Assembly (NCBI GenBank): GCA_001464715.1
Contig: LNDT01000013.1
Span: 19,823 to 83,822 of the forward strand
DNA length: 64,000 nt
Reading direction: 5' to 3'
Source: Bdellovibrionales bacterium Ga0074137
GTDB taxonomy: Bacteria; Bdellovibrionota; Bdellovibrionia; Bdellovibrionales; JAMPXM01
The notes under the pieces were generated by a model, which did not search any database, was not told the origin of the DNA, and was given only the letters and a program-made list of their open reading frames with translations. Below, in pieces: positions 17,823-39,261 of this stretch. A program made the translations under genes and the position numbers. Within the stretch, counting starts at the first letter, position 1. The number at the start of each line of letters is the position of its first letter.

Positions 17823-17835
17823 GACCCACGGTCAC
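17823..17835 (-). repeat. 13-mer copy (plus strand reads GACCCACGGTCAC)
   Basis: Exact and intergenic. It starts 1 nt after the maeB stop codon (17820-17822). Confidence 0.95.
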
Positions 17836-22612: not shown

Positions 22613-25045
22613 TTATTCTTTCGCTCCAACGCGAAGCTTAAGTCGCTGGACTATTTCATCCGTCGACATCGCCGCTACGGGCTCGACTCCGAAGACATCA
22701 TCTATTTGTCGACCCCACGTATGAACTTTCGCCCACAAAACAGAGAGACCTTCGTCGGCAATGGCTTCGGCCGCAGCTAGGAGTGCGCCCTTCGTGTCTC
22801 GACCTCGAAAACTTAAAACCCACTCGGTCGGCGAGGCCGAACATTCGATCTCATCAAAGATCTTAAGCTCAGCCCCTTCGCAGCTTCTGTCTCTTTCTCT
22901 GGGGCCATCGGCATTCCAAATTCGCAGAAGTTTAGCTTCTAGCCCTTTGAGAGAATTCGGCGGCTTCACTTCGAACCAATCGTAAACTCCAACCTGATCA
23001 GCGGACAAAATACTCGCATGCCGCACCGAAAGGCCTGCAGCCTGAAGCGTTCGGGCCATCTTCACAAAAAGACCAGCGCGATCCACGGACGTTTGAAAAC
23101 GCACCCAGACACGCCCTTCTTTGGAAAGCTTCAACACACGCACCGAGATATTTGGCTCGCGACCCACGGTCACGATGTCTTCAGCCAAAGTCTTCACAGG
23201 AATCGTTGCGACCAAGAAAGGATCTAAACGATCAAGCAGCGGCAAGAGTTCGCGACCGGCTTTAGACTCATCAAGTTTGCGCTCGAGCGAAGAAAGCATC
23301 TTCGCTTCAGGTCTCTCTAGAAATTCTACCAGCTCCGCCAAAAGCCGTTCTTTCCATGGAGTGTAGGCCTCACGGTTGGTGGCGCGAATGTCGACACACG
23401 TAAAAATCGCCAGCCGAAGAAGGCGTTTTCCTTCAATACCTTTAGCATGGAGTCGGCGCCAGGTTGTCGGATGCGCCGGATTTCCGCGGAAAGCCGCCAG
23501 CGAAAGCTCAAGATGGTTTTCAATGAGCCAAATCACTTCCAAGATCATCTCTTGAGAGAGCCCCCATTTTTCGAGATCGTTTCTTGCGATCATCACTGAC
23601 TTATCTGAGTGATCACCACCAGTGCCCTTTCCGACATCGTGATAAAGTGCGGTCCACCCTAGAATCTTCCACTCATCCCTAGAGAGTGCTTTTGCTATTC
23701 CCGAGAGCCGCCCCAGCGTTCCAGGCTTCTGGGCGACACGTTTCATCTCGCGAACCGCTTGCATCAAGTGCGCATCGACGGTGTACCGATGGTACTGATC
23801 GTGTTGAACGTAACCCACGATCTTTTTGAAATCAGTCACGGCCAAGTCGATCCACCGCGAACGAAAAAGAGCCAGTGTGACTTTGTCGTCTTGAAGCGGA
23901 TCGACCGCGCGAGACAAAAGTCGCCCCAAGGCCTCGTTCGCACGAGTTTTCTCAAGCTCACTTTTTCGCACGGCCGATCGGTAAAGTCGAAAGCCAGTGT
24001 CTCGCGCTTTCGCCTGAACCAGCACCGTGGGCTCCTTTTCAAGCCAGGCGGCAAGCTCGACAAATTCCATTTCTTTGGAATGAAACCTCTGAAGCTTAAC
24101 TTCTGAGATTTTGACGTGCTCAAAATCAACGTCGGCATAGAACGAAACGCGCGACAGGCCTTTTTGAATCTCTCGCATAAATTCGCGACTGGATGTGAAG
24201 CCAAACCACGTGGCGATGTCGGCCTGTTCGTGAGCACTCAAAAGATCGCCGCCACCATCAGACACCTGACTTCGAATTCGAGTCAGAAGAAAAAGTCGCC
24301 GGTAGTAATCATAGACATGAAGGGCATGCTCTCGCTCTGAGCTTAAAAATCTCTCCGGAAAAAGCTGACGCAGTTGAAGCGCTTGACCAAGATCGCGAAG
24401 ACCGCCGGGGCCATATTTAAGATTGGGCTCCAAGAAATTCGCGATCGAATCGTAGCGCTCGCCTCTTTGCTTTCGCTCGTCTTTAAGGGTTTTAAAAAAA
24501 CCACGCCGAACTTTTTTTAGCTTGGCTTTGACCTTCGAAATTCCCACCGCAAAGTGAGTCGCCGCGTCCTCGGTGAGCGGTTTTGCCAATAAAAGTGCAA
24601 GAACATCGAAAGCTTCTACACCTTTCATCCAATCGTCGCGGTCTTCAGGAGTTCGACTGCGGATTTTGATGCCAGCCTCTTGAGCTCGTCGTGTAACTTC
24701 GGCCGCCGCGGCTTCGTCGCCGATAAAAAGTAGATCAAGATCTGATTTTGGCGTCAATTCACCGCGGGCCCAACTTCCCAGAGCAATCGGTCGAGACCGC
24801 GCCCAGGCCGACGCCGAGGCCGCATCCTCTGTAAAGAACGCGATGATCGCTGATTCCAAGGCCAAGGTGAAAGCCGACAAATGAAGGGTCTCTGCCGCCT
24901 CTTCTTGCCCGTCGGGAACTGTTGACGGCGGCAAAAGGTGTTTTTTCGCTAGCTCTAAGATTTCATCTTTAGGCAGAAGAAATCGCGACCGCGAAGACAT
25001 CTTACTAATTGCGCCGGTTTCTAGCTTTGAAGTTCCTTTGTCCAC
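22613..25045 (-). CDS. glnD: [protein-PII] uridylyltransferase / uridylyl-removing enzyme
   Basis: 810 aa with an NTase motif (GSWARGELTPKSDLDLLF), an HD domain (LYHDVGKG) and two C-terminal ACT-like domains. The alternative start ATG 25000 would remove the overlap with mutS. Confidence 0.8.
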   Translation of the reverse strand: MDKGTSKLETGAISKMSSRSRFLLPKDEILELAKKHLLPPSTVPDGQEEAAETLHLSAFTLALESAIIAFFTEDAASASAWARSRPIALGSWARGELTPKSDLDLLFIGDEAAAAEVTRRAQEAGIKIRSRTPEDRDDWMKGVEAFDVLALLLAKPLTEDAATHFAVGISKVKAKLKKVRRGFFKTLKDERKQRGERYDSIANFLEPNLKYGPGGLRDLGQALQLRQLFPERFLSSEREHALHVYDYYRRLFLLTRIRSQVSDGGGDLLSAHEQADIATWFGFTSSREFMREIQKGLSRVSFYADVDFEHVKISEVKLQRFHSKEMEFVELAAWLEKEPTVLVQAKARDTGFRLYRSAVRKSELEKTRANEALGRLLSRAVDPLQDDKVTLALFRSRWIDLAVTDFKKIVGYVQHDQYHRYTVDAHLMQAVREMKRVAQKPGTLGRLSGIAKALSRDEWKILGWTALYHDVGKGTGGDHSDKSVMIARNDLEKWGLSQEMILEVIWLIENHLELSLAAFRGNPAHPTTWRRLHAKGIEGKRLLRLAIFTCVDIRATNREAYTPWKERLLAELVEFLERPEAKMLSSLERKLDESKAGRELLPLLDRLDPFLVATIPVKTLAEDIVTVGREPNISVRVLKLSKEGRVWVRFQTSVDRAGLFVKMARTLQAAGLSVRHASILSADQVGVYDWFEVKPPNSLKGLEAKLLRIWNADGPRERDRSCEGAELKIFDEIECSASPTEWVLSFRGRDTKGALLAAAEAIADEGLSVLWAKVHTWGRQIDDVFGVEPVAAMSTDEIVQRLKLRVGAKE
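23161..23173 (-). repeat. 13-mer copy (plus strand reads GACCCACGGTCAC)
   Basis: Exact, inside glnD. The coding strand reads GTG ACC GTG GGT C = V-T-V-G (EDIVTVGREPN). The coordinate was cross-checked from the ORF frame. Confidence 0.95.
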
Positions 25046-27864
25046 TCTGAGATCTTGCCCAAGGCTTCAAGCGGAGTCGAGCGATTGACATCAAAGCGCT
25101 CAATCTCTTTTAAAACTCCCTCAGCTTTTGGACTGATCGCTGGCCATGAAGGCGCGTCGAGGAGAAGCGAAAGCTGAGCACTTTGCGCAACTTTGGCAGA
25201 GCTCGTCGAAACGATGGGCTCGCGATGCACGACTCCGCTTGCAACACTTCCTTGAACGTCGCGAAGAATTCGCTCGGCCCGGTTTGTTACGGACAGCGGA
25301 AGTCCCGCAAGGCGCGCGACGTGAAGTCCGTACGACTGACCCGCCTCACCGTCCTTCAGGCGATGAAGGAATGTGATGACGCCGTCTTTTTCATGAATCG
25401 CCATGTGACAGTTCCTGATGCGATCGAAGTCTTTTTTTAGCGCCGTCAGTTCGTGATAGTGTGTTGCGAACATCGTGAGACATCGCTTTTGTTCGAGCAA
25501 ATGTTCAAGTATCGCTTGAGCAATGCTCAGACCGTCAAATGTCGAAGTTCCACGCCCGATCTCGTCAAGAACGACCAGCGTTCTTTCATTCGCGTCAGCC
25601 AAAAGCTCGGCTGTTTCTTTCATCTCAACCATGAATGTTGAAAGGCCTTCGGATAAGAAATCACTCGCACCGATGCGAGTTGCCACACGATCTAAAAGTG
25701 ATAACTCGGCTTCCCGGGCTGGAACAAAACTTCCGACCTGAGCCATGATGACAGCGATGGCCGCTTGCCTCATTAAGGTCGACTTACCCGCCATGTTCGG
25801 TCCTGTTAGAAGAAGGCACCCGCCTTCATCCATACTGATATCGTTTTCGACGAACGGTTTTGAAAGAGACTGTTCGACAACGGGATGCCGTGAACCTTTC
25901 AGTCTTAGGCCGACCGGCTGCGTGGAGCTTCGAAAACGAGGTCTTATGTAACGCTCTTCACTGGCGAGATGAGCCAAAGCCGACACGACATCAAGCTCTG
26001 CCAGACTCAAAGCAAAACGCATCAAAACTTTCGACTGACTGAGTACGAACTGAACAAGTTTTAAAAACTCTTCTTCTTCCAGCTTCAAACGCTTTTCCTG
26101 AGCCGAGATGACCTTGAGCTCGAGCTCGGAGAGTTCTTTCGTCGTGAAACGTTCGGCATTGGCCAGAGTTTGCTTTCGTTCGTAGCGATCCAACGGCACT
26201 CGTTCTTTGTGCGTATTCGTGATTTCGATCGAGTAGCCGAAGACATTGTTGTAGCGAACTTTGAGTGACGAAATACCGGTGAGTTCTTTTTCTCGGGCTT
26301 CAAGCTCCAGCACAAGACGATTTGAATTCGTCGACAATTCTATCAGCTCATCAAGCGCAGGACTTGCCCCAAGGCGAATCGCTCCGCCGTTTCGAACAAG
26401 AAGTGGCGGCTCTTCCACAATCACTCGCTCAATTTCTTTGACCACACTTGAAACTAGATCGGCTTCAGCCCTCGTAAATCCTTGCGACAAGCGCTCATCC
26501 ACAGATTGGGCCGCTTGCCAGCTGCTAAGGCCCGAAGCCAAAGATTGTGCTAGCGACAAGATGTCTCGTGGACCTCTTGATGGCTGACTGATTTTTCCCA
26601 GTCTTCTTGGAAGGTCACCGACGCCGGCCAACGCTTGCCGAAGACTTTTTCTGTTGAGATCACTTTGAACCCAAGTGCTCACCCGATCATGTCTTGCCGC
26701 GATCGCCGTCTCGTCATTGAGAGGGAACTGAAGCCATGACTTAAGAAGCCTCGCGCCCCCACTCGATTTCGTGCGGTCGATGGCTTGTAGCAAAGAACCT
26801 TGCCGCTCCCCTCGATTGGTTTCAAAGATTTCTAAATGCCGAAGTGTAGAGCCCGACAAAACCATGCGTCCTTCAAGACGTCGTTCTTCAAATGGCGTTA
26901 GAGAGTCGGCCCACACCTGCGCAGCACCACGGCCGCCGGTGGTTGAGACCGTGCTTGCATTGGAGAACTGCCCGATCGAATAAGCGAGAAGGCGACGAAC
27001 ACAGTCCGGACTGTTTTTATCGACCGTCGGCTCTATGATTTCTCCGTCAGCGGCGATCCATGAAAAATCATCTTGAGCTGTGAGAGAGGCACCCATTTTG
27101 TCGGCGAATTCTTTAATCTCGGGTCTGTCGGCATTGTCGCTGGATAAAACCCACTCAACAGCCTGAAGACTTCCCAAAAATTCTCGGCATCGATCTCGCG
27201 AAACGCCGCGGAAATAAAATCCTTCGCCCGTTGAGACGTCAAAAAATGCCAACGCTCCATCAGCGTCCCACGACGCCAAATAATTCGCGCTCGACGCATC
27301 TAAAGTTTCGTGGTCATAGACCATGCCAGGCGACAGCACGCGCGTGATCCCGCGCTTCACCAAGCCTTTAGCAAATTTCGGATCTTCCAACTGATCACAG
27401 ATCGCGACTTTGAAACCGGCGTGCAAAAGTTTATTGATGATGTTGGTGGCCGAATGATGAGGCACTCCGCACATCGGCGTTTCGTCTTGCGACTTTTTAT
27501 TGCGAGACGTGAGAGCGATGCCAAGGACGGGTGCCGCGAGTTCTGCGTCCCGGTGGAACATTTCAAAAAAATCACCCATGCGGAACAAAATAATCTTGTC
27601 CGGGTGCGCGGCCTTCACATCCCAGTACTGCTGCATTAAGGGCGTTATTCGCCCTGCGGGCGAGGGCGTTATTCGCCCTGCGGGCGAGGGCGTTATTCGC
27701 CCTGCGGGCGAGGGCGTTATTCGCCCATGAGGTGAGGACGACGAGGATTTCTGGAGACCCACGGTCACTTCGGAGCCCACTTCTGAATCAACTGCCATAC
27801 CGAATTCGATATCATCACCGGCGGGAGCTCTCCTCTCCCAATGCAGCGCAACAACACTAATCAT
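25021..27864 (-). CDS. mutS: DNA mismatch repair protein MutS (start uncertain)
   Basis: The conserved MutS core starts at ITPLMQQYW...GDFFEMF and includes the Walker A TGPNMAGKST. The track ORF runs to 27945. Candidate starts are ATG 27864 (GAAGG about 10 nt upstream), ATG 27798 and ATG 27636. Confidence 0.85.
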   Translation of the reverse strand: MISVVALHWERRAPAGDDIEFGMAVDSEVGSEVTVGLQKSSSSSPHGRITPSPAGRITPSPAGRITPSPAGRITPLMQQYWDVKAAHPDKIILFRMGDFFEMFHRDAELAAPVLGIALTSRNKKSQDETPMCGVPHHSATNIINKLLHAGFKVAICDQLEDPKFAKGLVKRGITRVLSPGMVYDHETLDASSANYLASWDADGALAFFDVSTGEGFYFRGVSRDRCREFLGSLQAVEWVLSSDNADRPEIKEFADKMGASLTAQDDFSWIAADGEIIEPTVDKNSPDCVRRLLAYSIGQFSNASTVSTTGGRGAAQVWADSLTPFEERRLEGRMVLSGSTLRHLEIFETNRGERQGSLLQAIDRTKSSGGARLLKSWLQFPLNDETAIAARHDRVSTWVQSDLNRKSLRQALAGVGDLPRRLGKISQPSRGPRDILSLAQSLASGLSSWQAAQSVDERLSQGFTRAEADLVSSVVKEIERVIVEEPPLLVRNGGAIRLGASPALDELIELSTNSNRLVLELEAREKELTGISSLKVRYNNVFGYSIEITNTHKERVPLDRYERKQTLANAERFTTKELSELELKVISAQEKRLKLEEEEFLKLVQFVLSQSKVLMRFALSLAELDVVSALAHLASEERYIRPRFRSSTQPVGLRLKGSRHPVVEQSLSKPFVENDISMDEGGCLLLTGPNMAGKSTLMRQAAIAVIMAQVGSFVPAREAELSLLDRVATRIGASDFLSEGLSTFMVEMKETAELLADANERTLVVLDEIGRGTSTFDGLSIAQAILEHLLEQKRCLTMFATHYHELTALKKDFDRIRNCHMAIHEKDGVITFLHRLKDGEAGQSYGLHVARLAGLPLSVTNRAERILRDVQGSVASGVVHREPIVSTSSAKVAQSAQLSLLLDAPSWPAISPKAEGVLKEIERFDVNRSTPLEALGKISEWTKELQS
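27640..27726 (-). repeat. perfect 24-bp tandem repeat x3.6 in the 5' region of mutS
   Basis: The plus-strand unit GGGCGTTATTCGCCCTGCGGGCGA occurs at 27640, 27664 and 27688, with a partial copy at 27712-27726, all identical. It encodes (GRITPSPA)x3 + GRITP. Each unit contains the palindrome GGGCG-TTATT-CGCCC. Confidence 0.95.
27756..27768 (-). repeat. 13-mer copy (plus strand reads GACCCACGGTCAC)
   Basis: Exact, in the mutS 5' extension. It reads V-T-V-G (GSEVTVGLQK), 30 bp from the 24-bp tandem repeat. Confidence 0.95.
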
Positions 27865-27935
27865 TGAACTAAAGCCTTCTAGAGCGAACGATCTCGATCT
27901 GAGGCCGCAAGCGACCACCATCCAAGGAGCCCGGG

Positions 27936-28586: not shown

Positions 28587-28618
28587 CATTTTGAGCCGGA
28601 TGACTCTTTCGATGCTAC

Positions 28619-30874
28619 CTATTTCAGACGATCCCACAAATATCGATATTCACGAGCCGCTAGCGCCGCTTTTGACTCGAGCGTTGCGGCCCCGGCGTGC
28701 CCACCTTCGATATTTTCATAGTAAAGAACTGGGAGACCCATTTCTTTCATACGAGCGACCATACGCCTTGCATGACCTGGGTGAACACGGTCATCGCGAG
28801 TCGACGTTGTAATGAATGGCTCAGGATACTTTACTCCGGGTTTCAAATTCTGAAACGGCGAATACTTCTCAAGAAAAGTTCGCTCCGCAGGAATTTCCGG
28901 ATCTCCGTACTCACCCACCCACGAGGCACCTGCGAGAAGTTTATGAAAACGAAGCATATCTAGAAGCGGAACTTGGCAAAGAATTGCGTTAAATAAATCA
29001 GGTCGCTGAGTCATGGCGACTCCGGCCAAAAGACCACCGTTTGAGCCCCCTCTGAAACCTAAATGTGCGCTCGACGTTAAACCACTTTGAATCACGTGTT
29101 CTGCGACGGCGTAGAGATCGTCGAACGCATTCTGACGTTTTTCTTTCAAAGCAGCACGGTGCCACTTCGGTCCAAATTCGCCGCCGCCACGAATGTTCGC
29201 AACGACAAAAGCTCCGCCGCGCTCAAGCCACACTTTTCCTTGGGCTCCAAGGTAGTAAGGAACCGAGGGAATTTCAAAACCTCCGTATGCATTGATCACG
29301 GTCGGCGTCTTGCCTGACTTTCGATTTACACCTTTTGGAAGAACAAGAAAGTAAGGCACTTTCGTTCCGTCTTTACTAACAGCGTAGTGCGTTTCTACTT
29401 TCATCCCTAAAGCATTGAAACGTTTGGGACTTGATCGAAGAACTGAAAGGGTTCCCGATGCATCACCTAAATACATTTCATACGGCGTCAAAAAGTCCGA
29501 AAAGAACACTGTGAAATTGGTTTCATCGGAACTCGAAAATCCCATCGAGACGGAACCATTTCGGCTGGGGAGCTTCACGGGCTTCAATTTCCACTGGCCA
29601 ATATCAGCTTTGTTTTTTGGAGGAACTCTTTCAAGAAATGCCAACCGACCTCGGACATTGTCGAGATAAGAAATCAAAGCCCGTTCTTTTGTCGTCGAAA
29701 TTCCAGAAAATGTTTGCGTCGCTGAAGGTTCAAATACGGATTCAACCGCAATCGCCGCCGATGGATCTTTTTTCCAAATTTCAACATCGAAGGCGTAGGC
29801 TATTCCCGACTTTAAGGAATTCCCAAAAACCGTCGCGTCCTTTTTGATCGTGAAAAGCAGGAGGCCGTTCGACAGACCGACAATTTCACTTGTCAGCGGA
29901 AGTGGGATCTTCTCCCAGCTGTCATCATCTCTACGAACGTAATGCTCTCCCTCGTTGGAAGTAAGGTACCGAGATACCAAATCCACCTTCTGATCCACGG
30001 TCACCCCGTCTCGAACGTAAGTCGATCGAAGTGTGTCCGCCCAGACTCCGACGTCCGTGACCTCACCCTTAAAAATCACAGGAGTGCTCGCGAGATCCGT
30101 TCCCCGCTTCCAGAGCTTCAAAGTCATCGGATATCCGGCCTCCGTCACTGTGCCGGGTCCTGCGGGAGCGCCGACCCACAAAGTGTCATCATCGCGCCAA
30201 TCGATATTCATTTTGGCTTCAGGTAAAAAGATTCCGCCTTTGACGAAGTCTTTCGCCGCTAAGTCGAACTCGCGAACGACGATGGCATCGCCTCCTCCGC
30301 GTGAAAGATAAAGAAGGCAGCGATCCTGAATGTTCGGAGCACACTCAATACCTTTATAAACCCAAGACTCTTTTTCAGCTTTTGCAATCGCGTCGAGATC
30401 GAAAATCGTCTCCCAGACGTCGGAACCCATTTTAAATTCGGTCAGCGATTGGCTGCGATAAATTCCTTTTTGATTCTTTTCATCTTGCCAAAAATTGAAG
30501 ACGACCGCGGCTTTGCCTGAACCCCTCACTGAAATCGAAGGAATACGATCTTTGGCTTGGATAATCGTAAGTACGTCGGACTTGATATCGCGAAAAAGCT
30601 GATCTTGTCCAAGCCGAGCCTCCGACTCTTTATTTCTCGCCTCGACCCACTTCAATGCATCGACACCGTAAATATCCTCAAGCTCCAAAAAAGAATCCAA
30701 GCCCGCCACTCCCCCTGCATTACTTTTACCATCTCGACCATCCAGGCTTTCTCGCCCTTGACCCACGGTCACGCTGGGACCCGACTGGCATGATGCAAAA
30801 ACCACCAACGACACGCCGATTGAAAGTACGACGGTCGCCATCCTCTGACTCCAGAAACTAAACTGAGTTTTCAT
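28619..30874 (-). CDS. prolyl oligopeptidase family (S9A) serine peptidase, probable lipoprotein
   Basis: ATG 30874 gives MKTQFSFWSQRMATVVLSIGVSLVVFASC (lipobox). It has a beta-propeller N-terminal half and the catalytic GGSNGGLL. The track ORF extends to 30958. Confidence 0.8.
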   Translation of the reverse strand: MKTQFSFWSQRMATVVLSIGVSLVVFASCQSGPSVTVGQGRESLDGRDGKSNAGGVAGLDSFLELEDIYGVDALKWVEARNKESEARLGQDQLFRDIKSDVLTIIQAKDRIPSISVRGSGKAAVVFNFWQDEKNQKGIYRSQSLTEFKMGSDVWETIFDLDAIAKAEKESWVYKGIECAPNIQDRCLLYLSRGGGDAIVVREFDLAAKDFVKGGIFLPEAKMNIDWRDDDTLWVGAPAGPGTVTEAGYPMTLKLWKRGTDLASTPVIFKGEVTDVGVWADTLRSTYVRDGVTVDQKVDLVSRYLTSNEGEHYVRRDDDSWEKIPLPLTSEIVGLSNGLLLFTIKKDATVFGNSLKSGIAYAFDVEIWKKDPSAAIAVESVFEPSATQTFSGISTTKERALISYLDNVRGRLAFLERVPPKNKADIGQWKLKPVKLPSRNGSVSMGFSSSDETNFTVFFSDFLTPYEMYLGDASGTLSVLRSSPKRFNALGMKVETHYAVSKDGTKVPYFLVLPKGVNRKSGKTPTVINAYGGFEIPSVPYYLGAQGKVWLERGGAFVVANIRGGGEFGPKWHRAALKEKRQNAFDDLYAVAEHVIQSGLTSSAHLGFRGGSNGGLLAGVAMTQRPDLFNAILCQVPLLDMLRFHKLLAGASWVGEYGDPEIPAERTFLEKYSPFQNLKPGVKYPEPFITTSTRDDRVHPGHARRMVARMKEMGLPVLYYENIEGGHAGAATLESKAALAAREYRYLWDRLK
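29992..30004 (-). repeat. near copy of the 13-mer, 12/13 (GATCCACGGTCAC on + strand)
   Basis: Inside the S9 peptidase gene, same frame as the exact sense copies: V-T-V-D (RDGVTVDQKV). Confidence 0.8.
30760..30772 (-). repeat. 13-mer copy (plus strand reads GACCCACGGTCAC)
   Basis: Exact, in the S9 peptidase gene just after the lipobox Cys. It reads V-T-V-G (CQSGPSVTVGQGR). Confidence 0.95.
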
Positions 30875-30996
30875 AGGCTCCAGGCTCGGAGCGATTTCAC
30901 GATCCGTCAAGTGCCAAGCACTCGGATCATCGCCAAAGAATTCCCCTTGAAGTCTCAAGCTTACTAACGAATCCTATCGACGTAGGAGAGCCCACG

Positions 30997-32517
30997 ATGG
31001 AGCAAAATTCAAAGCCCGTAAAAGAACGAAAGCCAACAAAGTCGTTCGACTTAAAGCCTGGGGATCATATCCATTTCATGGGAATCTGCGGCACCGCAAT
31101 GGCTTCTCTGGCCGGCCTTCTTCACTCGCAAGGATATAAAATCACGGGATCTGACCAAAACGTTTATCCTCCGATGTCGACTCAACTTGAGTCTTTGGGA
31201 ATTAAGATTCTTTCTGGCTACAAACGCGAAAACCTGACACGAAATCCCGTAGGGACTCCGAACCTTGTTATCGTCGGAAACGTTATTTCTAGAAACTTCG
31301 AGGAAGCAGAAGCACTTCTCGAGAGCGATATTCCCTTCACAAGTCTTCCCCAGGCGATGGGTCAGATTGTCATCGGTCGTCGCCACTCGGTGGTCGTCGC
31401 CGGAACTCACGGCAAGACTACGACCACGGCGCTAAATTCGTATGTGGCCGAATCCCTAGGGCTCCATCCTGGATTCATGGTCGGTGGAATTCCAAAAAAC
31501 TTTGGGCAAAGTTACCGATTTGGTTCGGGCGATTGGTTCATTATCGAGGGCGACGAATACGATACGGCCTTCTTCGATAAGGTCCCAAAATTCATTCACT
31601 ATCGGCCGCGATCAGTGATTCTAAATTCGGTTGAATTTGACCACGCGGATATCTATAGGGATCTCGATCACGTTAAAGAAGCTTTTCTTATGTTGATCGA
31701 TCTGATTCCTGAGGGTGGACTTCTCATAGCTTGCGAGGATGAAGAGACAATCCGCGATCTTTTATCTCGTCGAAAAGAAAGTTTAGCGAAAAGAAATGTC
31801 AAAGTTGTAACTTTTGGTCTCACGCGCGGTGATCATCGAGCTGAGAATTTGGAAGCCGTTCCTGTCAAAGGGCTCGGTTCAAAAGAACAAGCTTTGCGCC
31901 TTGGAACACGTTTTTCCTACCGCGGTCAGAAAATCGACATCCCGATGATCGGCTCTTACAACGTAAAGAACGCTCTAGCGACGATAGCGCTATGGACGGA
32001 ACTGGGGCACCCAGCGTCCGAGATTGCTCCACGCCTTCTTGGCTTTGAAGGTGTAAAACGCCGTCAAGAAGTTCTGGGAACTCCCGGTGGCGTCACGGTG
32101 ATCGAGGATTTCGCGCACCACCCGACGGCCGTTCGAGAAACGATCCGCACTGTTCAAATGCAGTATCCGAAGTCCCACGTTTTTTCGATTTTTGAAGCGC
32201 GCTCGGCGACATCGCGCCGAAATGTTTTTCAAGACGAGTACGCAGCAGCTTTCATCGATGCAGGAACTCAAAGTCTTTTGCTGCCTCCACCCTTTAATCT
32301 TGCCGGCTTAAAAGAGGCCGATCGTTTTTCAACCGACGTACTCTTAAAACGACTGCATGATTCCAAAGTCGACGCGGTTCTTTTTGATGGAGTTGATTCC
32401 ATCGTAAAAAATGTCATCTCCCGTGCAAAACCCGGAGATGTCGTTCTCGTCATGTCCAATGGTGGCTTTGACGGAATCTATCAGAAGCTTCTGTCGAGCT
32501 TAGAAAGTGTTCGCTAA
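30997..32517 (+). CDS. mpl: UDP-N-acetylmuramate:L-alanyl-gamma-D-glutamyl-meso-DAP ligase (murein peptide ligase)
   Basis: 506 aa; HFMGICGTAMASLAGLL is the Mpl-type N-terminus. It has the Mur ligase central domain (GTHGKTTTT) and ends MSNGGFDGIYQKLL. Confidence 0.75.
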   Translation: MEQNSKPVKERKPTKSFDLKPGDHIHFMGICGTAMASLAGLLHSQGYKITGSDQNVYPPMSTQLESLGIKILSGYKRENLTRNPVGTPNLVIVGNVISRNFEEAEALLESDIPFTSLPQAMGQIVIGRRHSVVVAGTHGKTTTTALNSYVAESLGLHPGFMVGGIPKNFGQSYRFGSGDWFIIEGDEYDTAFFDKVPKFIHYRPRSVILNSVEFDHADIYRDLDHVKEAFLMLIDLIPEGGLLIACEDEETIRDLLSRRKESLAKRNVKVVTFGLTRGDHRAENLEAVPVKGLGSKEQALRLGTRFSYRGQKIDIPMIGSYNVKNALATIALWTELGHPASEIAPRLLGFEGVKRRQEVLGTPGGVTVIEDFAHHPTAVRETIRTVQMQYPKSHVFSIFEARSATSRRNVFQDEYAAAFIDAGTQSLLLPPPFNLAGLKEADRFSTDVLLKRLHDSKVDAVLFDGVDSIVKNVISRAKPGDVVLVMSNGGFDGIYQKLLSSLESVR

Positions 32518-33121
32518 AAAGTTCGACAACACGGCGCCAACTTTTTCCTTTTTGAAGAAGCTTACGGGACGGAACAAATCCTTGAGCTTCTAGCTGGTTC
32601 AAAGTGACGTAGTCTCTTACGGTTCTAAAGTGCCTTCCCCAATAAACACGCTTCGAGTAGGGACGTGCATCCCAAAATCCACGCTCCACTACGGCATCTC
32701 GGCCAGTATTCCCTCCCTTCCCTCCCTTCCCTCCCTTAACCCCCTTCCCTCGACCCACGGTCACCTTCCTTTGATCGGCGATTCTTCGGAATCCGACAGC
32801 TCTTGCGATCCCACCAGCGAGGCCCGAAATAAACCCCTTCCACTTGAGTGGCCGAGTCACTCTCAAATGAATGTGAATGTGGTTCCCAACATTGGCGAAC
32901 TTATAGATCGTAACTCCGTGACGTTCCGACATCCCGCGAATGAGCCGTTGAATCTTTGCTTCGTTCTTTAGAAGACTCATTCGGCCTCGCGCGAGCGAAC
33001 TACGCATCACCACGTGCATAGATTGGTACGACACCACGGGACGCCGTACTCGAACACTTCGGGTCGTTCGCTTTCCGGGATTAAAAACTTCAGGAGTAAG
33101 TTGGCGTTTGATTTTTTTCAT
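32450..33121 (-). CDS. HUH / Y1 tyrosine transposase-like protein (IS200/IS605 TnpA superfamily, RAYT-like), single copy
   Basis: It has HVVMRSS...IYKFANVGNHIHIHLRV (HUH motif) and RGFWDARPYSKRVY...RTVRDYVTLNQ (catalytic-Tyr Yxxx(N)(Q/P) block). A low-complexity insert lies between the two motifs and carries one 13-mer copy and a KGG x3 repeat. I saw no tnpB and no IS ends. The 3' end overlaps mpl convergently by 68 bp. The track ORF start is 33139; ATG 33121 (MKKIKRQL) is preferred. Confidence 0.6.
   Translation of the reverse strand: MKKIKRQLTPEVFNPGKRTTRSVRVRRPVVSYQSMHVVMRSSLARGRMSLLKNEAKIQRLIRGMSERHGVTIYKFANVGNHIHIHLRVTRPLKWKGFISGLAGGIARAVGFRRIADQRKVTVGRGKGVKGGKGGKGGNTGRDAVVERGFWDARPYSKRVYWGRHFRTVRDYVTLNQLEAQGFVPSRKLLQKGKSWRRVVELFSEHFLSSTEASDRFRQSHHWT
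32711..32737 (-). repeat. perfect 9-bp tandem repeat x3 (CCCTCCCTT on + strand) inside the Y1 gene
   Basis: Copies at 32711-32719, 32720-32728 and 32729-32737 are identical. They encode KGG-KGG-KGG and lie 14 nt from the 13-mer copy at 32752. Confidence 0.95.
32752..32764 (-). repeat. 13-mer copy (plus strand reads GACCCACGGTCAC)
   Basis: Exact, inside the Y1 transposase-like gene. It reads V-T-V-G (QRKVTVGRGKG). Confidence 0.95.
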
Positions 33122-33238
33122 GAGCCACACGCTCAGCAAATTCGAAACTGCGGTCCTTAGAAACGTAGCGAATCCTCACCAAAATCCGGGATCCTTAAGT
33201 CCGATTTACGAACCCTGTTGTTGGTCCGAGTCGCAGCC

Positions 33239-33251
33239 GTGACCGTGGGTC
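33239..33251 (+). repeat. 13-mer copy GTGACCGTGGGTC, array member 1
   Basis: Exact and intergenic, upstream of the Y1 gene start. Confidence 0.95.
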
Positions 33252-33271
33252 AGAAGATGGCTAGGTGTCGT

Positions 33272-33284
33272 GTGACCGTGGGTC
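33272..33284 (+). repeat. 13-mer copy GTGACCGTGGGTC, array member 2
   Basis: Exact and intergenic, 33 bp after member 1. Confidence 0.95.
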
Positions 33285-33296
33285 AAAGTTGAAGTG

Positions 33297-33309
33297 GTGA
33301 CCGTGGGTC
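33297..33309 (+). repeat. 13-mer copy GTGACCGTGGGTC, array member 3 (extends to palindrome GTGACCGTGGGTCAC)
   Basis: Exact, 25 bp after member 2. The next two bases (AC) complete 6-bp arms around a GTG centre. It overlaps the TGA stop (33308-33310) of the hydrolase gene. Confidence 0.95.
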
Positions 33310-34495
33310 ACTGGAGGGCGGTTTTTACTAAGGTGTGCAGGGCTGGTCGGAGCTGGAGGAAGCGTGTGTTCTTTCGAGTTGGGTGGACTCGATTCGATAA
33401 AATAGTGACCAATAAGTCGGATTTTGGATCGTACCACAGCGATGTTCCGGTAAAACCTGTGTGACCGATACTCGAAAGTGAAAACTTCGGTCCACACGAT
33501 GCGCTCCCTTTCGTTGGCATCATAAAACCCAAGGCCCAGTCGCCTTTTGACCTTGAAACGGCGCGGTCCAAAAATTTTCGTCCCGATAATGGCAATTTTG
33601 ATTTCATCCCGAGGTGAAGTTTTCTCAACTCAAGTCCGTAACGGCTCAAATCTCCGATGGGGCCGAAAAGACCAGCATGAGGCGCTATCCCCTTTAGACT
33701 CGACGTATTCTCATCGTGCACTTCACTTTTTAGACCCCGCTTACGCCACGTCGAATCGAATTCGGTGGGCGCAGTTTCCGAAACGCGGTCCTTATTCCAG
33801 ATGAGACCGGGCCGAGCAGCTCCGTCTCGCTTCAAATCATTTTTTGAAAGTGCATTATAGAAAGTAGATTTAAGACCAAGTCGCTCCTGAATTCTGGCGT
33901 ACTGCTCTGGAAATCCCATGAGACTTGAGCGTCTCAAAATTTCGCCGAGTAAAAAGAAATCCAAATCCGAATAGATCGCAGAACCTCGCTGCGCCTTCGA
34001 GATTTCTCCACTCCTCGCCCGTTTCCTCACGTCCCGAACGACCAAATCAAAGAGCAGCGTCCACGCCTCTTCATGAGTTCCAGGAGATTTTAAAGATACC
34101 TGCTTGTAAAATGGCTTCCACCACGTCATTCCCGCCGAGTGGCAGAGAAGGTCTCTGATCGTCAATCGGCCAAGCGGTGACCGTGGGTCCATGAGAGAGG
34201 GGGATGGGAGGAGTTCAGGGAGCCAGTTAACGACGGGGTCTTTTAAGGAGAGGTGACCTTCGTCGACTTCGATCATGGTGCTTGAGACTGACATCACGAT
34301 TTTTGTCAGCGAGGCCCAATCATAGATCTCCGACGTTTCACCGCAAGCGACGTCGATTCGAAGTTTTCCGCTCTCCCACGCCTGCAGTCGAAATCCCGGG
34401 GCTGCATCTTGCCACTGTGATCCATCTTTTGGATGAGTCCAATTGTCCAAAAGATTCAGAAACGACTTTTCGACCGGTCGAGCTCGACGTGACAT
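33308..34495 (-). CDS. beta-lactamase-family serine hydrolase (AmpH / DD-peptidase-like)
   Basis: 395 aa with the S-x-x-K motif (DWASLTKIV) and a class C / PBP4*-like fold. Its start overlaps the ldcA stop. Confidence 0.7.
   Translation of the reverse strand: MSRRARPVEKSFLNLLDNWTHPKDGSQWQDAAPGFRLQAWESGKLRIDVACGETSEIYDWASLTKIVMSVSSTMIEVDEGHLSLKDPVVNWLPELLPSPSLMDPRSPLGRLTIRDLLCHSAGMTWWKPFYKQVSLKSPGTHEEAWTLLFDLVVRDVRKRARSGEISKAQRGSAIYSDLDFFLLGEILRRSSLMGFPEQYARIQERLGLKSTFYNALSKNDLKRDGAARPGLIWNKDRVSETAPTEFDSTWRKRGLKSEVHDENTSSLKGIAPHAGLFGPIGDLSRYGLELRKLHLGMKSKLPLSGRKFLDRAVSRSKGDWALGFMMPTKGSASCGPKFSLSSIGHTGFTGTSLWYDPKSDLLVTILSNRVHPTRKNTRFLQLRPALHTLVKTALQ
34177..34189 (+). repeat. 13-mer copy GTGACCGTGGGTC
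   Basis: Exact, inside the AmpH-like hydrolase gene. The coding strand reads GAC CCA CGG TCA C = D-P-R-S (LMDPRSPLG). Confidence 0.95.
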
Positions 34496-35511
34496 TAGCG
34501 CACCGACTTCAGAGAAATTTCTTTTGGAAAAGAGACCGCTGTTTCTATTTCAATGGAGCTTGACCGAAGATCAATAACCGCTTCGGTGCCGATCGGAAAA
34601 ACGCGCTGACTGACACCGTGACCGCTGGCGATACCGCTCAAAACGGTAACGCCATTTTTCTGCGCCCAATCTTGAGCAAATCTTTCGATCACTGCGGAAA
34701 CTTTCGAGGACCCATCGGGCTCAAGCCCACCCAGAAATTCTCCAAAGACAATAGCCTTCGTTCGCCGCGACAAAACACCACTTTGAACAAGTTGTTCAAG
34801 CACGCGATCCACCCGGTAGCCACGCTCACCAAGCTCTTCAAAAAACACAATCTGACCCACGGTCACAGGATGAAGTGCCGTTCCAATCGCCGACGCGAAG
34901 GTCACCAAATTCCCACCCATCGTTCGCCCACGAAGGCGTTTCTCTTTCGGCACTCGAACTTTATTGAGCGATCTCAAACCCTCGTACAAAACTGTCGAAG
35001 TCTCACCGAATACAATTCGTCTCAGCTCTTCAACCTGAGCGTCGATAGGACGCGGCTTCAGATCACTCACAAGATTTGAATCGATACACCGACCGAGTCG
35101 GTCAAGAAGCGGCGCCTGAAGGCTTGGCCATTTCCAGGTTTGTGAAAGCCAAAGCTGGATGGTTGTCACATCACTAAAGCCCAATAGAATTTTTGAGTGC
35201 TTTGGTCTTTTCAATTTCATGAGCTGAGGCACAAGCCGAATAGATCCATAGCCGCCGCGAAGGCACCAGATCGCTTTTGAATCCTTCGCCAAAAGCGCAT
35301 TGGCCAAATGCTTCAGTCTTTTCTCATCGACATGACTTGCGATGACGTCCGCTCCAAAAAGATCTTTCGGAAGTCTCGCCTTAAGCCCCCAAGATTCAAG
35401 AAACTGAACCCCGGCTTCGACTTCAGCATCCGTCGGACGAAATCCGGGCGCAATCACATCGACAATATCGCCAGCTTTTAGAGCCGACCAACTTGCGTAT
35501 TTAGAGACCAC
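34495..35511 (-). CDS. ldcA: muramoyltetrapeptide LD-carboxypeptidase (peptidase S66)
   Basis: 338 aa with GDIVDVIAPG, the Ser nucleophile in GFSDVTT, FFEELGERGYRVDRVLEQL and the His in ASGHG. Confidence 0.75.
   Translation of the reverse strand: MVSKYASWSALKAGDIVDVIAPGFRPTDAEVEAGVQFLESWGLKARLPKDLFGADVIASHVDEKRLKHLANALLAKDSKAIWCLRGGYGSIRLVPQLMKLKRPKHSKILLGFSDVTTIQLWLSQTWKWPSLQAPLLDRLGRCIDSNLVSDLKPRPIDAQVEELRRIVFGETSTVLYEGLRSLNKVRVPKEKRLRGRTMGGNLVTFASAIGTALHPVTVGQIVFFEELGERGYRVDRVLEQLVQSGVLSRRTKAIVFGEFLGGLEPDGSSKVSAVIERFAQDWAQKNGVTVLSGIASGHGVSQRVFPIGTEAVIDLRSSSIEIETAVSFPKEISLKSVR
34854..34866 (-). repeat. 13-mer copy (plus strand reads GACCCACGGTCAC)
   Basis: Exact, inside ldcA. It reads V-T-V-G (LHPVTVGQIVFF). 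It is the only copy right of 33.2 kb in this orientation. Confidence 0.95.
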
Positions 35512-36931
35512 GGATATTTCCTTTCGGGATCAGATCGAGGCCGTGAAGTGACGTCGGATACTTTCCATCAAAGCAGGCAGCACAGAATCCACCATTTTCG
35601 CCGCGAACCGCCGTCATCAATCCCTCCATGCTCAAATACCTAAGCGTGTCGGCACCAACAAAAGCGCAGATTTCATTGACCGTCTGGCGGCTTGCGATCA
35701 GCTGTGATTTCTCAGGAGTGTCGACACCGTAATAACAAGGCCCTACTGTGGGAGGCGCTGCGATTCGAAGATGAACTTCTTTTGCGCCTGCGGCGCGCAC
35801 AAGTGAAATTATCTTTTTCGAAGTTGTTCCGCGGACAAGAGAGTCATCAAGAACGACAACTTTTTTTCCTTTCAACACAGCCTGCTGCGGGTTGAGCTTA
35901 ATCTTGACGCCAAAGTCGCGAATCGCTTGATGAGGTTGGATAAAGGTGCGGCCGATGTAGTGATTTCGAATAATTCCAAGCTCAAAGGGCTTTCCGCTTT
36001 CAACACTGTAGCCTAAGGCCGATGGAACGCCGCTATCTGGAACTGGAATGACGACATCAAAATCAATCGGAGCAGCTTCGCTGGCATCCTGGCGAGCTAA
36101 AAGCTGTCCCGCACGTTTACGAACTTCATAAACGCTCTCGCCAAATATAATTGAATCCGGGCGCGCGAAATAAACGTGTTCAAAGACGCAGGCCTTTCTT
36201 GGCTGAGGCGTGCCAAATTTGACCGAGTGTTCTCCTGTATCGTCGACCCACCAGATTTCTCCCGGCTCAATTTCGCGAACAAACTTAGCCCCGATCAGAT
36301 CAAACGCGCACGTTTCGCTGGCGACGACATAGGAATCAGCTCCGCCGGGATCTTTTAAACGCCCCAAAACCAACGGACGAAAACCCATCGGGTCCCGAGC
36401 GGCGATCATCGAGCGATGAGAAAGAACGGTGAAACTAAATGCACCTTCAAGCTGACTGAGCCCGGACTTCAAACATTCGATCAGATCCGATGAAGGATAC
36501 TTTGCGATCATGTGCAAAATGACTTCGGTATCATTGGTGCCTTGAAAAATCGAACCTTCGGCCTTCAACTTTTCCCTTAGAGGACCGGCATTGACGATAT
36601 TCCCGTTGTGAGCAACAGCGACAGGACCATTAGAAAGATTCGCCTGAAGAGGTTGAAAGTTGGCCATTTGATTCATGCCGGTCGTCGCATAGCGAACGTG
36701 ACCGATCGCGGCCCGTCCGGTGAGGCTATCGAGCGTCTGATCACTGAAGACTTCAGACACAAGACCAGGCCCCTTGTGAAGTCGCTGACTGGCTTCATCA
36801 AGAGTCACAATCCCTGCGGACTCTTGTCCTCGGTGCTGAATGGCATAGAGAGACAAGTAGGCCAAGCGACTGGCGTGTTGATGATTCCAAATTCCAATGA
36901 CTCCGCACTCGTCTTTAAAACTCTTCATCAA
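35501..36931 (-). CDS. purF: amidophosphoribosyltransferase
   Basis: 476 aa with the N-terminal CGVIGIW Ntn-amidotransferase motif and a PRTase domain ([13 protein letters not shown]). Confidence 0.9.
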
Positions 36932-39261
36932 TACTGTCTTTCAAATGAGAGATTTTTAAAGGCGCTGGACCATCCCGAGTCGTAGTCCATTTTCAATTCT
37001 AAAAGATTCACATCCAAAGTTCCTTCCGGATCGGTGTCCGAAGAAGATCCGGACTCGATTACAAAACGGTGACCGTGGGTCGTTCCAATCAAGTGAAGTG
37101 ACCGTGGGTCGCCGCCGTGAGAGGCGAACCGATTGCGAAGAGCTTCTAAGCTTTCAGTGCTTGAGATCAGGACTTCGTAGGAGACTTCACAAAACAAAGA
37201 TTCAGCAAAGCTCATCTTAGCCAGATCGGGCCTCGCAGCCTGGGTCGCTGAGCGACTGAGGCGAACGCCGATATTCTTTGAGATCGCCATTCGCGCCAAC
37301 GCGTAGCCAAGACCGAACTTACCAACCACACGAGTTGCCGAAATCGTATTCTCTGTAGCCGGAGAATGAGGCCCAACACCTTCGGTGAGCTTTCGGAGCG
37401 AAGTGACGAGGGCAGCGATTTCTTTTCCGTTCAGCGTCCCGAAAGCTCGAGGCCCTGTACTTTCCGGGCCCGTGACTTCTCCCATCGCGCCGCTGGTCCA
37501 GAGTTGTGGAAGCCGCAGCAAAAATACGTTTTCGCCTTCATGTACGAAATCGCTTTTTGGAAGTGAAGTGACCGTGGGTCGTAGGCCGACGACGCCAGTT
37601 GAAGGCGTTGGTGTGATCCCGCGACCTTCGGTTTCGTTATAAAAGCTGACGTTACCGCTGATGATCGGAGCCACTAGGCTTTCACAAATTTCGTTGAGGC
37701 CAGAAAGAGCTGCGACAAAAGAGCTCATCACCGGAACTCTTTCCGGATTTCCGAAATTCAAACAGTCCGTAACGGCCAGTGGCTCAAAACCTTTTGCCGC
37801 AAGCTCAAGGGCTGGAAATGCAACAGCATCAAGCCCCCCTTCTCTCGCATCAAGTCTCATCATTTGAGGCCGACACCCTAAAACAATTCCTAATCCCCGC
37901 CCAGAGTCCTTCAAGCGAATGACACCGACGGATTCGTGGCAATCGGCCGCCGTGGATGCTCCAACGTGACCGTCATATTGCCGAAAAATAAATTCCCGCG
38001 AACATCCTTGTGGAGATGAAAGTGCTGTCCTCAGCGAGGCACGAATATCTGCAGCACTTTCGCCAGCGATATCGGCGACACTAGCCACCCGGTTCGACGG
38101 CGTCCACGGTTCGAATGGTCGTTCGTACATCGGTGCATGCTCTGTCAAAAGCTCGGGATCGATCTCCGTAAGAAGATCTCCCTTCCAAAAAAGCTTCATC
38201 GTTTTTTTCGCTGTGACTTCGCCGATAGCGACGGCTTCAAGTCCCCAACGTTTAAACAATGCTTCCACATTAGAAAGTTTCGCTGGCTCCACAACCATCA
38301 ACATTCGCTCTTGGCTTTCGCTCAGGAGAATGTCCTCGGGTTGAAGCGTAGACTCGCGCAAAGGAACGCGGTCCAAATGTAGGTTGAAGCCGACGCCACC
38401 CTTGGATGCCATTTCAAAAGAAGATGAAGTAAGTCCTGCGGCGCCCATATCTTGTATCGCCACGACGAGATCTTGCTCCATCACTTCAAGACACGCCTCG
38501 ATCAAAAGCTTCTCAAAAAACGGATCTCCGATCTGAATTGTCGGACGTTTTTTTTCGGAGTCCTTTCCAAAACTTTCCGAAGCCATGCTCGCTCCGTGAA
38601 CGCCATCACGTCCCGTCTTGGCTCCTGCGTACACCACAAGATTTCCGACACCTTTGGCTTTCGACAAAAAGACTTTCTCGCCTTTTCTAAAAAGACCGAC
38701 GGCCATTGCATTCACGAGAACGTTTTTGTCATAGCTAGGATCGAATTCAGTCTGTCCTGTGATTGTCGGAACCCCGACCGGGTTACCATAACCACCGATA
38801 CCGCGAACAACTCCATCAACAATCTTTTCCATTCGTTCGGCCTGGGGACGTCCGAAACAAAGATAGTCTGCGACGGCGATCGGTCGCGCGCCCATCGTGA
38901 AAATATCGCGCAGGATACCACCGACACCCGTCGTGGCTCCTTGATAGGGCTCAATAAAACTTGGATGATTGTGGCTTTCGATTTTAAAGGCCACACGCTC
39001 GCCATCGCCAAGATCAACGACGCCGGCATTTTCGCCAAAGCTCTGAAGCACGCGCTCAGATTTATTGAATAGACCTTTTAAATGAACTCGCGAACTTTTG
39101 TACGAGCAGTGTTCGCTCCACATGGCCGAGAAAAGCGCCCACTCGACGCCCTGAGGCTCTCGCCCCAAAAGTCCGGCGATACGGCGATGCTCCGACTCAT
39201 TTAATCGGTAATGTTTTAGTTTTTCTTGGAGTTCTTTGTTGTCGCGCTGATCTTGCCCCAT
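36928..39261 (-). CDS. purL: phosphoribosylformylglycinamidine synthase subunit PurL (FGAM synthase II)
   Basis: Duplicated AIRS-type domains ([20 protein letters not shown]). ATG 39261 lies 6 nt after the purQ stop. The track ORF extends to 39315. Confidence 0.9.
37069..37081 (+). repeat. 13-mer copy GTGACCGTGGGTC
   Basis: Exact, at the purL 3' end. The coding strand reads G ACC CAC GGT CAC = T-H-G-H (IGTTHGHRF). Confidence 0.95.
37098..37110 (+). repeat. 13-mer copy GTGACCGTGGGTC
   Basis: Exact, in purL. It reads D-P-R-S (GGDPRSLHL) and sits in the 21-nt block AAGTGAAGTGACCGTGGGTCG (37091-37111). Confidence 0.95.
37568..37580 (+). repeat. 13-mer copy GTGACCGTGGGTC
   Basis: Exact, in purL. 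It reads GA CCC ACG GTC AC = P-T-V-T (LRPTVTSLP). The identical 21-nt block occurs at 37561-37581. Confidence 0.95.

Follow-up and report, generated by a model that had tools for sequence, protein, structure and literature searches.

The 64,000-nucleotide (nt) stretch of contig LNDT01000013.1 analysed here (hereafter the window) contains a short DNA word, GTGACCGTGGGTC, in 13 exact copies and two variant copies, where approximately none would be expected by chance. These copies of the 13-nt word are gathered around a gene for a Y1 protein of the HUH type (hereafter the Y1 gene), which resembles the REP-associated tyrosine transposases (RAYTs; REP, repetitive extragenic palindromic sequence) and whose product is the probable partner of the word. 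The genes that carry the word, its conservation and origin, its association with the Y1 gene and the significance of this association are described below.

Distribution of the word and the genes that carry it

The word is strongly over-represented in the window, and the 10-mer GTGACCGTGG occurs there 15 times versus an expectation of 0.06. One of the two variant copies (29992–30004) has a single mismatch (GGATC) and the other (at 8732) consists of the first 10 bases only. When up to two mismatches were allowed across the window, no additional copies of the word were found, and hence the word is unusually sharp. In the ~73 kb covered by the word counts (the window and a 9-kb extension), eight of the 13 exact copies are intragenic and five are non-coding (Table 1). 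The copies share no sequence outside of the 13 nt and their flanks are not conserved.

Table 1. Positions of the Y1 gene, of the exact and variant copies of the 13-nt word in the window, and of one recurrent variant form in related contigs.
Feature	Position	Strand	Remarks
Y1/HUH gene resembling RAYT genes	32450..33121	-	223 aa from ATG at 33121
Word inside Y1 gene	32752..32764	-	Sense, V-T-V-G; disordered loop between HUH motif and catalytic Tyr
Three direct word copies 5' of Y1 gene	33239..33309 (33239, 33272, 33297)	+	Antisense to Y1 gene
Word in AmpH-like gene (beta-lactamase fold)	34177..34189	+	Antisense, D-P-R-S
Word in ldcA	34854..34866	-	Sense, V-T-V-G; sole breach of the polarity rule
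Word in purL, C-terminus	37069..37081	+	Antisense, T-H-G-H
Word in purL, C-terminus	37098..37110	+	Antisense, D-P-R-S
Word in purL	37568..37580	+	Antisense, P-T-V-T
Word in S9 peptidase gene	30760..30772	-	Sense, V-T-V-G; length-variable linker after lipoprotein Cys
Variant word GTGACCGTGGATC in S9 peptidase gene	29992..30004	-	Sense, V-T-V-D; kept in L003
Word in mutS 5' leader, non-coding	27756..27768	-	Same place in L003 (10753)
Word in glnD	23161..23173	-	Sense, V-T-V-G; particular to the window's lineage
Intergenic word, directly after stop codon of malic-enzyme/PTA gene	17823..17835	-	Outermost exact copy
Degenerate copy GTGACCGTGGTTT	8732..8744	+	3' end of SH3-domain gene, frame S-D-R-G-L
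Sites of G-to-A variant (position 11)	Window 29992-30004; L003 ~5335-5347; L007 ~9929-9941; L011; L022

The host genes glnD, mutS, the S9 peptidase gene, the AmpH-like gene of the beta-lactamase fold (ampH), ldcA and purL had been named from the DNA letters in a first-pass annotation, and Pfam supports each of these names, the match of the Y1 gene (Y1_Tnp) being a weak one. The same annotation counted six sense copies that share one reading frame. Translation of the open reading frames (ORFs) bears out the frame, as the sense copies in glnD, "mutS", the S9 peptidase gene (two copies), the Y1 gene and ldcA are all read as GTG ACC GTG GGT/GAT. The number, however, has to be reduced to five intragenic sense copies, because the "mutS" copy is part of a 5' leader and not coding: the MutS orthologue of a related species starts with MTPLMQQYW, the mutS gene of the window starts at the ATG of MQQYW, the MutS_I domain starts at residue 101 of the window's mutS ORF, and the word is located ~45 codons upstream of the true start. 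For the four antisense copies, the translations agree with those reported earlier, viz. D-P-R-S in ampH and in purL, and T-H-G-H and P-T-V-T in purL.

The D-R-G frame, which had been described as never used, is indeed not used by any full copy in the window, but it is the frame of the partial copy at 8732 and of full copies at related loci on other contigs, viz. in rsmH of L008 (N-D-R-G-S) and in L098 (G-D-R-G-S). Among independent sense sites, ~9 use V-T-V-G and 2–3 use D-R-G-S, in line with the expectation from codon usage. The codon usage of the window predicts a V-T-V-G:D-R-G-S ratio of 72:28, under which the finding of V-T-V-G in five out of five copies has P ~0.19. In view of this expectation and of the D-R-G-S counter-examples, exclusive use of one frame was dropped as a signal, and the meaningful rule that it had been taken for is not upheld. 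The restriction of the sense copies to V-T-V-G is not significant, and the stop codon, codon usage and small numbers explain it. The frame containing TGA, which is "forbidden" within coding sequence, is found as a real stop at the end of the AmpH-like gene, whose TGA stop is formed by a T and the GA that are the first two bases of the word's reverse complement (window 33297–33310); this overlap of stop codon and word is kept in L003 (5305–5318).

The exact product of the Y1 gene is also present on two metagenome contigs. Its HUH motif (H81, H83) and its tyrosine (Tyr171) are invariant in 14 homologues, and the family profile matches IS608 TnpA over both of these motifs. In the AlphaFold model of the protein, the core has predicted local distance difference test (pLDDT) values of 85–92, and residues 117–144, in the region of the word-bearing loop, have values of <50. 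The model matches the TnpA proteins of IS608 and ISDra2 in Foldseek, and its best superposition is with the E. coli RAYT 4ER8 (root-mean-square deviation of 2.8 A, 159 columns). These predicted features suggest that the Y1 protein is a member of a divergent, RAYT-like clade of Y1 HUH proteins that is placed outside of the curated families. The 3' ends of the Y1 gene and of a convergent murC-like ligase gene overlap by 68 nt (32450–32517), and they likewise overlap in L003 and L007. A promoter scan upstream of the Y1 gene found no consensus promoter.

Conservation of the word and origin of its copies

The conservation of the word was examined on syntenic contigs of two other species (L003 and L007), which were fetched by means of the exact Y1 protein and its homologues. 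Proteins encoded on these contigs are 75–94% identical to those of the window and, at identical amino acids, third-codon positions agree in 43–63% of cases, which indicates that synonymous sites among the three are near saturation. The same 13-mer is present at the orthologous sites in the S9 peptidase gene (both sites), the Y1 gene, ampH, ldcA and purL (all three sites). Third-codon positions are identical in the window, L003 and L007 at 59 of 59 sites inside the word versus 53% outside of it, and four-fold degenerate sites at 50 of 50 versus 43% (P ~4e-19). Seven of the eight intragenic word sites are identical in all taxa, versus 4.6% of other 13-nt windows. At purL residue 745 (the T-H-G-H site 37069..37081), where the preceding codon is ACG, TCG or GTG in different species, the third-position G that belongs to the word is always kept.

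If V-T-V-G and the other peptides were conserved protein motifs, the word could be a mere by-product of them, and the threonine and glycine of the LdcA site, elsewhere a loop of the form x-T-x-G whose sequence varies while its length does not, are indeed semi-conserved. However, among 120 LdcA orthologues V-T-V-G is found solely in the 3 word-bearing genomes and is absent from the other 117. The same DNA is found in four different peptides and in five non-coding copies, and every V-T-V-G, D-P-R-S, P-T-V-T and T-H-G-H peptide in the ORFs of the window is spelled by the word. Because V-T-V-G is rare in LdcA, because third-codon positions within the word are all fixed and because the peptides are always word-spelled, the word does not follow from conserved protein sequence as a by-product, and the explanation by protein motifs is refuted. 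The condition under which the first-pass annotation would have given up its own view, viz. conservation of the peptides in species whose DNA lacks the 13-mer, hence does not hold. The view that the constraint on the word acts on the DNA itself is strongly supported, as had been argued in the first-pass annotation from the occurrence of one exact word in different proteins.

The origin of the intragenic copies was examined with three syntenic outgroups (L009, L095 and L096), all of which lack the word at the purL, ldcA and ampH sites. At these sites (three in purL and one each in ldcA and ampH) the alignments are gap-free and the outgroup DNA matches 3–8 of the 13 nt, viz. 3–4 nt at the ampH site and 8 nt at the purL site 37568..37580, where the outgroups have RPSVD/E; at the purL site 37098..37110, the outgroups have LASA, AANE or NMAS, which are of equal length. 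At the glnD site, L003 has GTGAGCGTGGGTA (V-S-V-G) and the length is unchanged. Comparison of L098 with the genome of the window revealed a change from G-G-R-G-S to G-D-R-G-S, in which one altered amino acid is accompanied by recoding from GGA GGG CGA GGA AGC to GGT GAC CGT GGG TCG, including a switch between serine codon families. No length change relative to outgroups or relatives was found at the three purL sites, ldcA-216, ampH, glnD, L098 hyp391 and L098 SH3. The gap-free alignments and the small number of matching outgroup bases hence indicate that most of the intragenic copies were made in place by substitution, with the length of the protein unchanged.

For the copies in ldcA and in the C-terminus of purL, this origin had already been proposed in the first-pass annotation, and the three outgroups bear it out. 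Other copies are found in length-variable or disordered segments, viz. the S9 lipoprotein linker, the Y1 loop, the ldcA N-terminus (in L003 and L007) and the acyltransferase termini of L098, and for these copies insertion is possible. The annotation had likewise taken the S9, Y1 and mutS copies to lie in low-complexity segments with an inserted look; the S9 linker and the Y1 loop are indeed length-variable or disordered, and the mutS copy is part of a non-coding leader.

A few further features of individual sites were also observed. A G-to-A change at position 11 (GGATC), by which one stem pair is broken, is seen repeatedly across several genomes, both in the S9 gene and upstream of Y1 genes, and this recurrence suggests that the site has a second form that is tolerated. 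In L007, each of the three sites upstream of the Y1 gene is degenerate, and the intragenic copies are perfect. In the mutS leader, the word is closely followed on its downstream side by 3.7 copies of a perfect 24-nt tandem repeat (AGGGCGTTATTCGCCCTGCGGGCG, 27639–27726), each unit of which contains a GGGCG...CGCCC hairpin; L003 has two copies of this repeat, which, when translated in the mutS frame, mimics a PSPAGRIT peptide repeat.

Association of the word with the Y1 gene

The Y1 locus is syntenic in the window, L003, L007 and L009. In L095 and L096 the synteny from purL to mutS is kept and the Y1 gene is absent, and these two contigs contain no word at up to two mismatches, save for one chance two-mismatch match in L095. 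L009, in which the Y1 gene is present, has two copies only, one located just upstream of the gene and the other inside it, and in L003 and L007 the Y1 gene is preceded by two or three word sites, which are either perfect or degenerate. A scan of species-representative genomes identified 477 relatives of the Y1 protein, nearly all of them in metagenome-assembled genomes (MAGs) of the Bdellovibrionota. Approximately 19 of the 30 closest homologues carry the sequence GGTGACCG[T/A]GGGTCTAC (with up to two mismatches) in antisense orientation, ~30–60 nt ahead of the start codon; control regions do not carry it. In these upstream copies the GACC/GGTC arms are kept and the middle loop base varies. 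The internal word of the Y1 gene also has its counterpart in the homologues, in which V/M-T-V-G occupies the corresponding position, after the HUH motif and before the catalytic Tyr.

One MAG, JADJOF01 (Bdellovibrionales, L011–L038), contains at least 16 dispersed Y1 paralogues that are 61–92% identical in amino acid sequence. Twelve of the 16 paralogues examined have the upstream word or its loop variant (up to two mismatches) and are included in the ~19 homologues given above, and the layout TTGACC-N17-(G)TAGACCCNCGGTCACC-N20-35-ATG is common to 13 of the 16. Unlike in an insertion sequence, the similarity among these paralogues ends at the stop codon and ~100 nt upstream of the gene.

Twelve of the 13 exact copies fall within 14.4 kb around the Y1 gene and, apart from the outermost copy, none is found in the other ~59 kb read, the 9-kb extension included (P <1e-6 for clustering, and 1.6e-4 after tandem copies are collapsed). 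The density of the word declines with distance from the Y1 gene. The copies also obey a rule of polarity, in that those upstream of the Y1 start are antisense to the gene and those inside or downstream of it are sense. In the clade of the window, 15 of 16 sites follow this rule, lineage-specific gains included, and the exception is the ldcA copy. The rule is likewise followed by all of the exact copies in three independent contexts, viz. the cell-division cluster of L008 (6/6), another neighbourhood in L030 (2/2) and the beta-oxidation genes of L098 (9/9), which together amount to 17/17 (P ~8e-6). In L008 it is the Y1 gene that the polarity tracks, irrespective of how the host genes are oriented, and the window, L003, L007, L008, L009 and L098 all have antisense copies upstream of the Y1 gene and sense copies inside or downstream of it. 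The absence of the word where the gene is absent, its presence upstream of and inside homologues of the gene, and its clustering and polarity around the gene indicate that the word system is centred on the Y1 gene, which is more than just one of its hosts.

The GC skew is uniformly negative over the window, with no switch, and hence replication direction provides no explanation for the switch in orientation; a replication-terminus or fork-trap reading was rejected on the same ground. Identity with matS, parS, KOPS or Chi was likewise rejected, as the word does not fit their consensuses and is present on both strands of one replichore.

Additional occurrences of the word were observed on several contigs. 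The left part of the window has its orthologous counterpart in L098, which contains, between acyltransferase and SH3-domain genes, a Y1 paralogue (7937–8530) with a 9-copy array. The same junction in the window has no Y1 gene and just the degenerate copy at 8732, matching 10 of the 13 nt, which may be the relic of a lost second Y1 locus. A 391-aa gene of L098 starts with ATGACCGTGGGTTCAGTGACCGTGGGTC (M-T-V-G-S-V-T-V-G-L; 9964–9995), which consists of two word-like units in tandem: the first is a near-copy, ATGACCGTGGGTT, which differs by one base from the ATG-type variant and gives the start codon, and the second is an exact copy. L092 (LNFM01000286.1, a 130-kb contig of 53% GC) has three exact copies 23–26 nt apart (458–519), located between a flagellin stop codon and a terminator, and a similar tandem set is present in L093 (64% GC). 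In a metagenome scan for tandem words, four of the six matches were rejected, as they proved to be coding or tandem repeats of an unrelated kind in which the word occurs by chance.

The word and the Y1 protein as a putative REPtron-like unit

A REPtron consists of a RAYT (TnpA-REP) gene that is flanked by its cognate REP or REPIN sequences (Nunvar 2010, PMC2817692; Ton-Hoang 2012; Quentin 2018, PMC6006769). The system described here resembles a REPtron in that copies of one small palindromic word, in opposite orientations, are found to either side of a Y1 HUH gene that appears to have been inherited vertically at a locus of conserved synteny, in that a further copy, in frame, separates the HUH and Tyr motifs within the gene, an arrangement also reported of RAYT subclass 2.4, and in that the upstream copy of the paralogues, GTAG-ACCCNCGGT, resembles the "GTAG foot" of REPs, GTAG being present only at the promoter-proximal copies of the paralogues. 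It differs from a REPtron in the size of the word (13 nt with a 4-bp stem versus a 20–40 nt imperfect palindrome with a 5' GT[AG]G foot), in its distribution (most copies are inside genes and, in the DNA read, within ~15 kb of the Y1 gene, whereas REPs are spread through intergenic space), in its strictly polar arrangement in place of REPIN doublets, and in a Y1 protein that falls below the thresholds of the curated families. Based upon these considerations, the 13-nt word is probably the cognate DNA site of the adjoining RAYT-like Y1 protein, and the two would together represent a REPtron-like unit with a short-range polar array. REPtrons as such are already known; what sets the present case apart is a 13-nt, mostly intragenic, mostly substitution-born, letter-perfect and short-range polar array in the Bdellovibrionota. 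Literature searches with the word or its core sequence gave chance primer matches only, and no link between Bdellovibrio and REPs was found in them.

By analogy with IS608 TnpA and the E. coli RAYT, the Y1 protein would recognise a hairpin and a 5' GT in single-stranded DNA, and we infer that it binds or nicks the word, which in single-stranded DNA is likely present as a small GACC-GTG-GGTC hairpin. The array would then owe its presence to the interaction between the Y1 protein and the word. Copies would arise by nucleotide substitution at poorly conserved, spare codons, in frames set by the TGA stop in one sense frame and by codon usage in the others, and each copy, once formed, would be held invariant by the constraint on the DNA. 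A cis-preferential action of the Y1 protein would be a plausible cause of the short range of the array. Selection on point mutations may have fixed the copies, or a process linked to the enzyme may have produced them.

A number of observations weigh against a REPtron-like unit of this kind. With 4 bp and -2 to -3 kcal/mol the hairpin is a weak one, shuffled sequences have z-scores that are just as good, no compensatory changes were seen in its stem, and a structure-based argument for the word was accordingly set aside as unsupported. Canonical REPs, being 20–40 nt long, extragenic and genome-wide, are unlike the word, and HUH "peel and paste" transposition inserts DNA and leaves gains without length change unexplained. 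The Y1 protein scores 21.3 bits against Pfam Y1_Tnp (PF01797), below the cut-off of 23, and the NCBIfam model REP_Tyr_transpos (NF047646) does not match it, homologues scoring 20–22 bits versus a cut-off of 80. Most of the 16 JADJOF01 paralogues have a single upstream copy, so that the array is not universal, and the 6.7 kb that can be read beside the triple word of L092 contain no Y1 gene. The clustering rests on ~73 kb of genome, and copies elsewhere in the genome are possible.

Two features are also left unexplained by a REPtron-like unit, viz. the re-forming of short-range arrays with the same polarity at each location of the Y1 gene and the replacement of 5–10 of the 13 bases without a change in length. 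These features, together with the letter-perfect retention of the word, would be explained if a Y1-coupled activity rewrote short flanking patches of DNA, those in essential genes included, into the word in a templated, polar manner and at unchanged length, acting in cis and outward from the gene, or if selection had built a polar cis-element around a domesticated transposase. We regard this as a minority possibility that is rather unlikely.

Clusters of protein-binding sites are known beside the gene of the binding protein, as with parS in spo0J and TerB at tus. The word resembles these sites by analogy, as it consists of exact, coding-embedded and polar sites that are conserved at the DNA level, one of them at the gene of the presumed binder, and differs from them in the protein family and in the lack of a skew switch in the window. 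In keeping with this analogy, the word may be a parS- or Ter-like cis-element bound by another host factor (a regulator, a nucleoid protein or a segregation protein), with the Y1 gene as one of its targets or as a gene that it regulates. The overlap of the upstream copy with a promoter-like TTGACC-N17-TAGACC sequence in the paralogues, the strong conservation of sites in both orientations and the polarity of the array are consistent with this proposal. It is nonetheless rather improbable, as the word is found only with the Y1 gene present and tracks this gene into four unrelated neighbourhoods, in which the Y1 gene is the only gene in common. Even less can be said for an element acting in RNA as a small mRNA hairpin, which is highly unlikely: many REPs are thought to act in RNA (PMC3733652) and some copies of the word are at gene ends (17823; the L092 triple before its terminator), but the word is present in both orientations relative to transcription with its loop and 5' GT equally conserved in each, an Rfam scan of the whole window gave no match, and the weakness of the hairpin argues against it here as well.

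Intragenic REPs are found in functional genes with the frame intact, mostly in linkers, loops and termini, and N-terminal cases are often non-coding (Di Nocera 2013, PMC3733652). The word resembles such elements in its occurrence in linkers, loops and termini, with the mutS copy non-coding like their N-terminal cases. Rickettsia palindromic elements, described by Ogata in 2000, are reportedly found inside functional genes without breaking the frame. These two kinds of element insert 20–30 or more residues, whereas here at least eight sites lack a length change and are substitution-born, and the word is letter-perfect across species in which synonymous sites are near-saturated. Local hopping of a miniature element under the action of the Y1 protein, with later accommodation in frame as in these elements, would account for the decrease in density away from the Y1 gene and for the copies in indel segments (S9 linker, Y1 loop, ldcA N-terminus in L003 and L007, L098 acyltransferase termini), and it has precedents (PMC3733652, PMC6006769). 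We consider it doubtful, however, since an insertion of 13 nt shifts the frame, the eight purL, ldcA, ampH, glnD and L098 sites listed above show no length change, and the copies are alike only over the 13 nt. The Y1 locus itself shares with IS200/IS605 elements the fold and catalytic residues of the TnpA Y1 transposase and a small hairpin beside the gene, but it lacks conserved left and right ends, it is syntenic and apparently vertically inherited in the clade of the window, and the 61–92% identical JADJOF01 paralogues have the promoter-proximal word as their only common element. DNA uptake sequences (uptake signal sequences and DNA uptake sequences, USS/DUS) provide a further comparison, as their use of frames reflects stop codons and codon preference and they are found at poorly conserved residues (Findlay and Redfield 2009, PMC2817400). 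The word is similarly short, exact and frequent in coding sequence, with frames that follow codon preference, at poorly conserved residues and with an origin by point substitution. Uptake sequences are, however, genome-wide, with no tie to a neighbouring gene and no polarity, and they need a competence machinery. That the window is a dense patch of an uptake-type or other genome-wide word accumulated by molecular drive is thus very unlikely, given the 12 copies in 14.4 kb, the lack of the word in the syntenic L095 and L096, and its tie to and polarity about the Y1 gene.

If the word is the cognate site of the Y1 protein, RAYT/REP systems would extend to the Bdellovibrionota in an unusual minimal, intragenic and strictly polar form. 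The function of RAYTs is an old open question, and an array that has re-formed in four neighbourhoods, mostly without insertion, would provide a compact test system for it. Both synonymous and non-synonymous positions of the housekeeping genes purL, ldcA, glnD and the S9 peptidase gene are fixed by a DNA word and not by the protein, which has a bearing on analyses of the ratio of non-synonymous to synonymous substitution rates (dN/dS) and on models of repeat-proteome co-evolution.

Other over-represented k-mers near distant Y1 homologues (L067, L052, L050, L021 and L040) were rejected as candidates, being ordinary tandem repeats and not dispersed words. Unrelated tandem repeats (with periods of 24, 8 and 12 nt, and one irregular) are present with the distant homologues in L067 (10891–11117), L050 (9726–9760), L052 (14889–14971) and L040 (325–460); three of these are at most a few hundred bases from the Y1 gene, and that of L052 is ~7 kb away.

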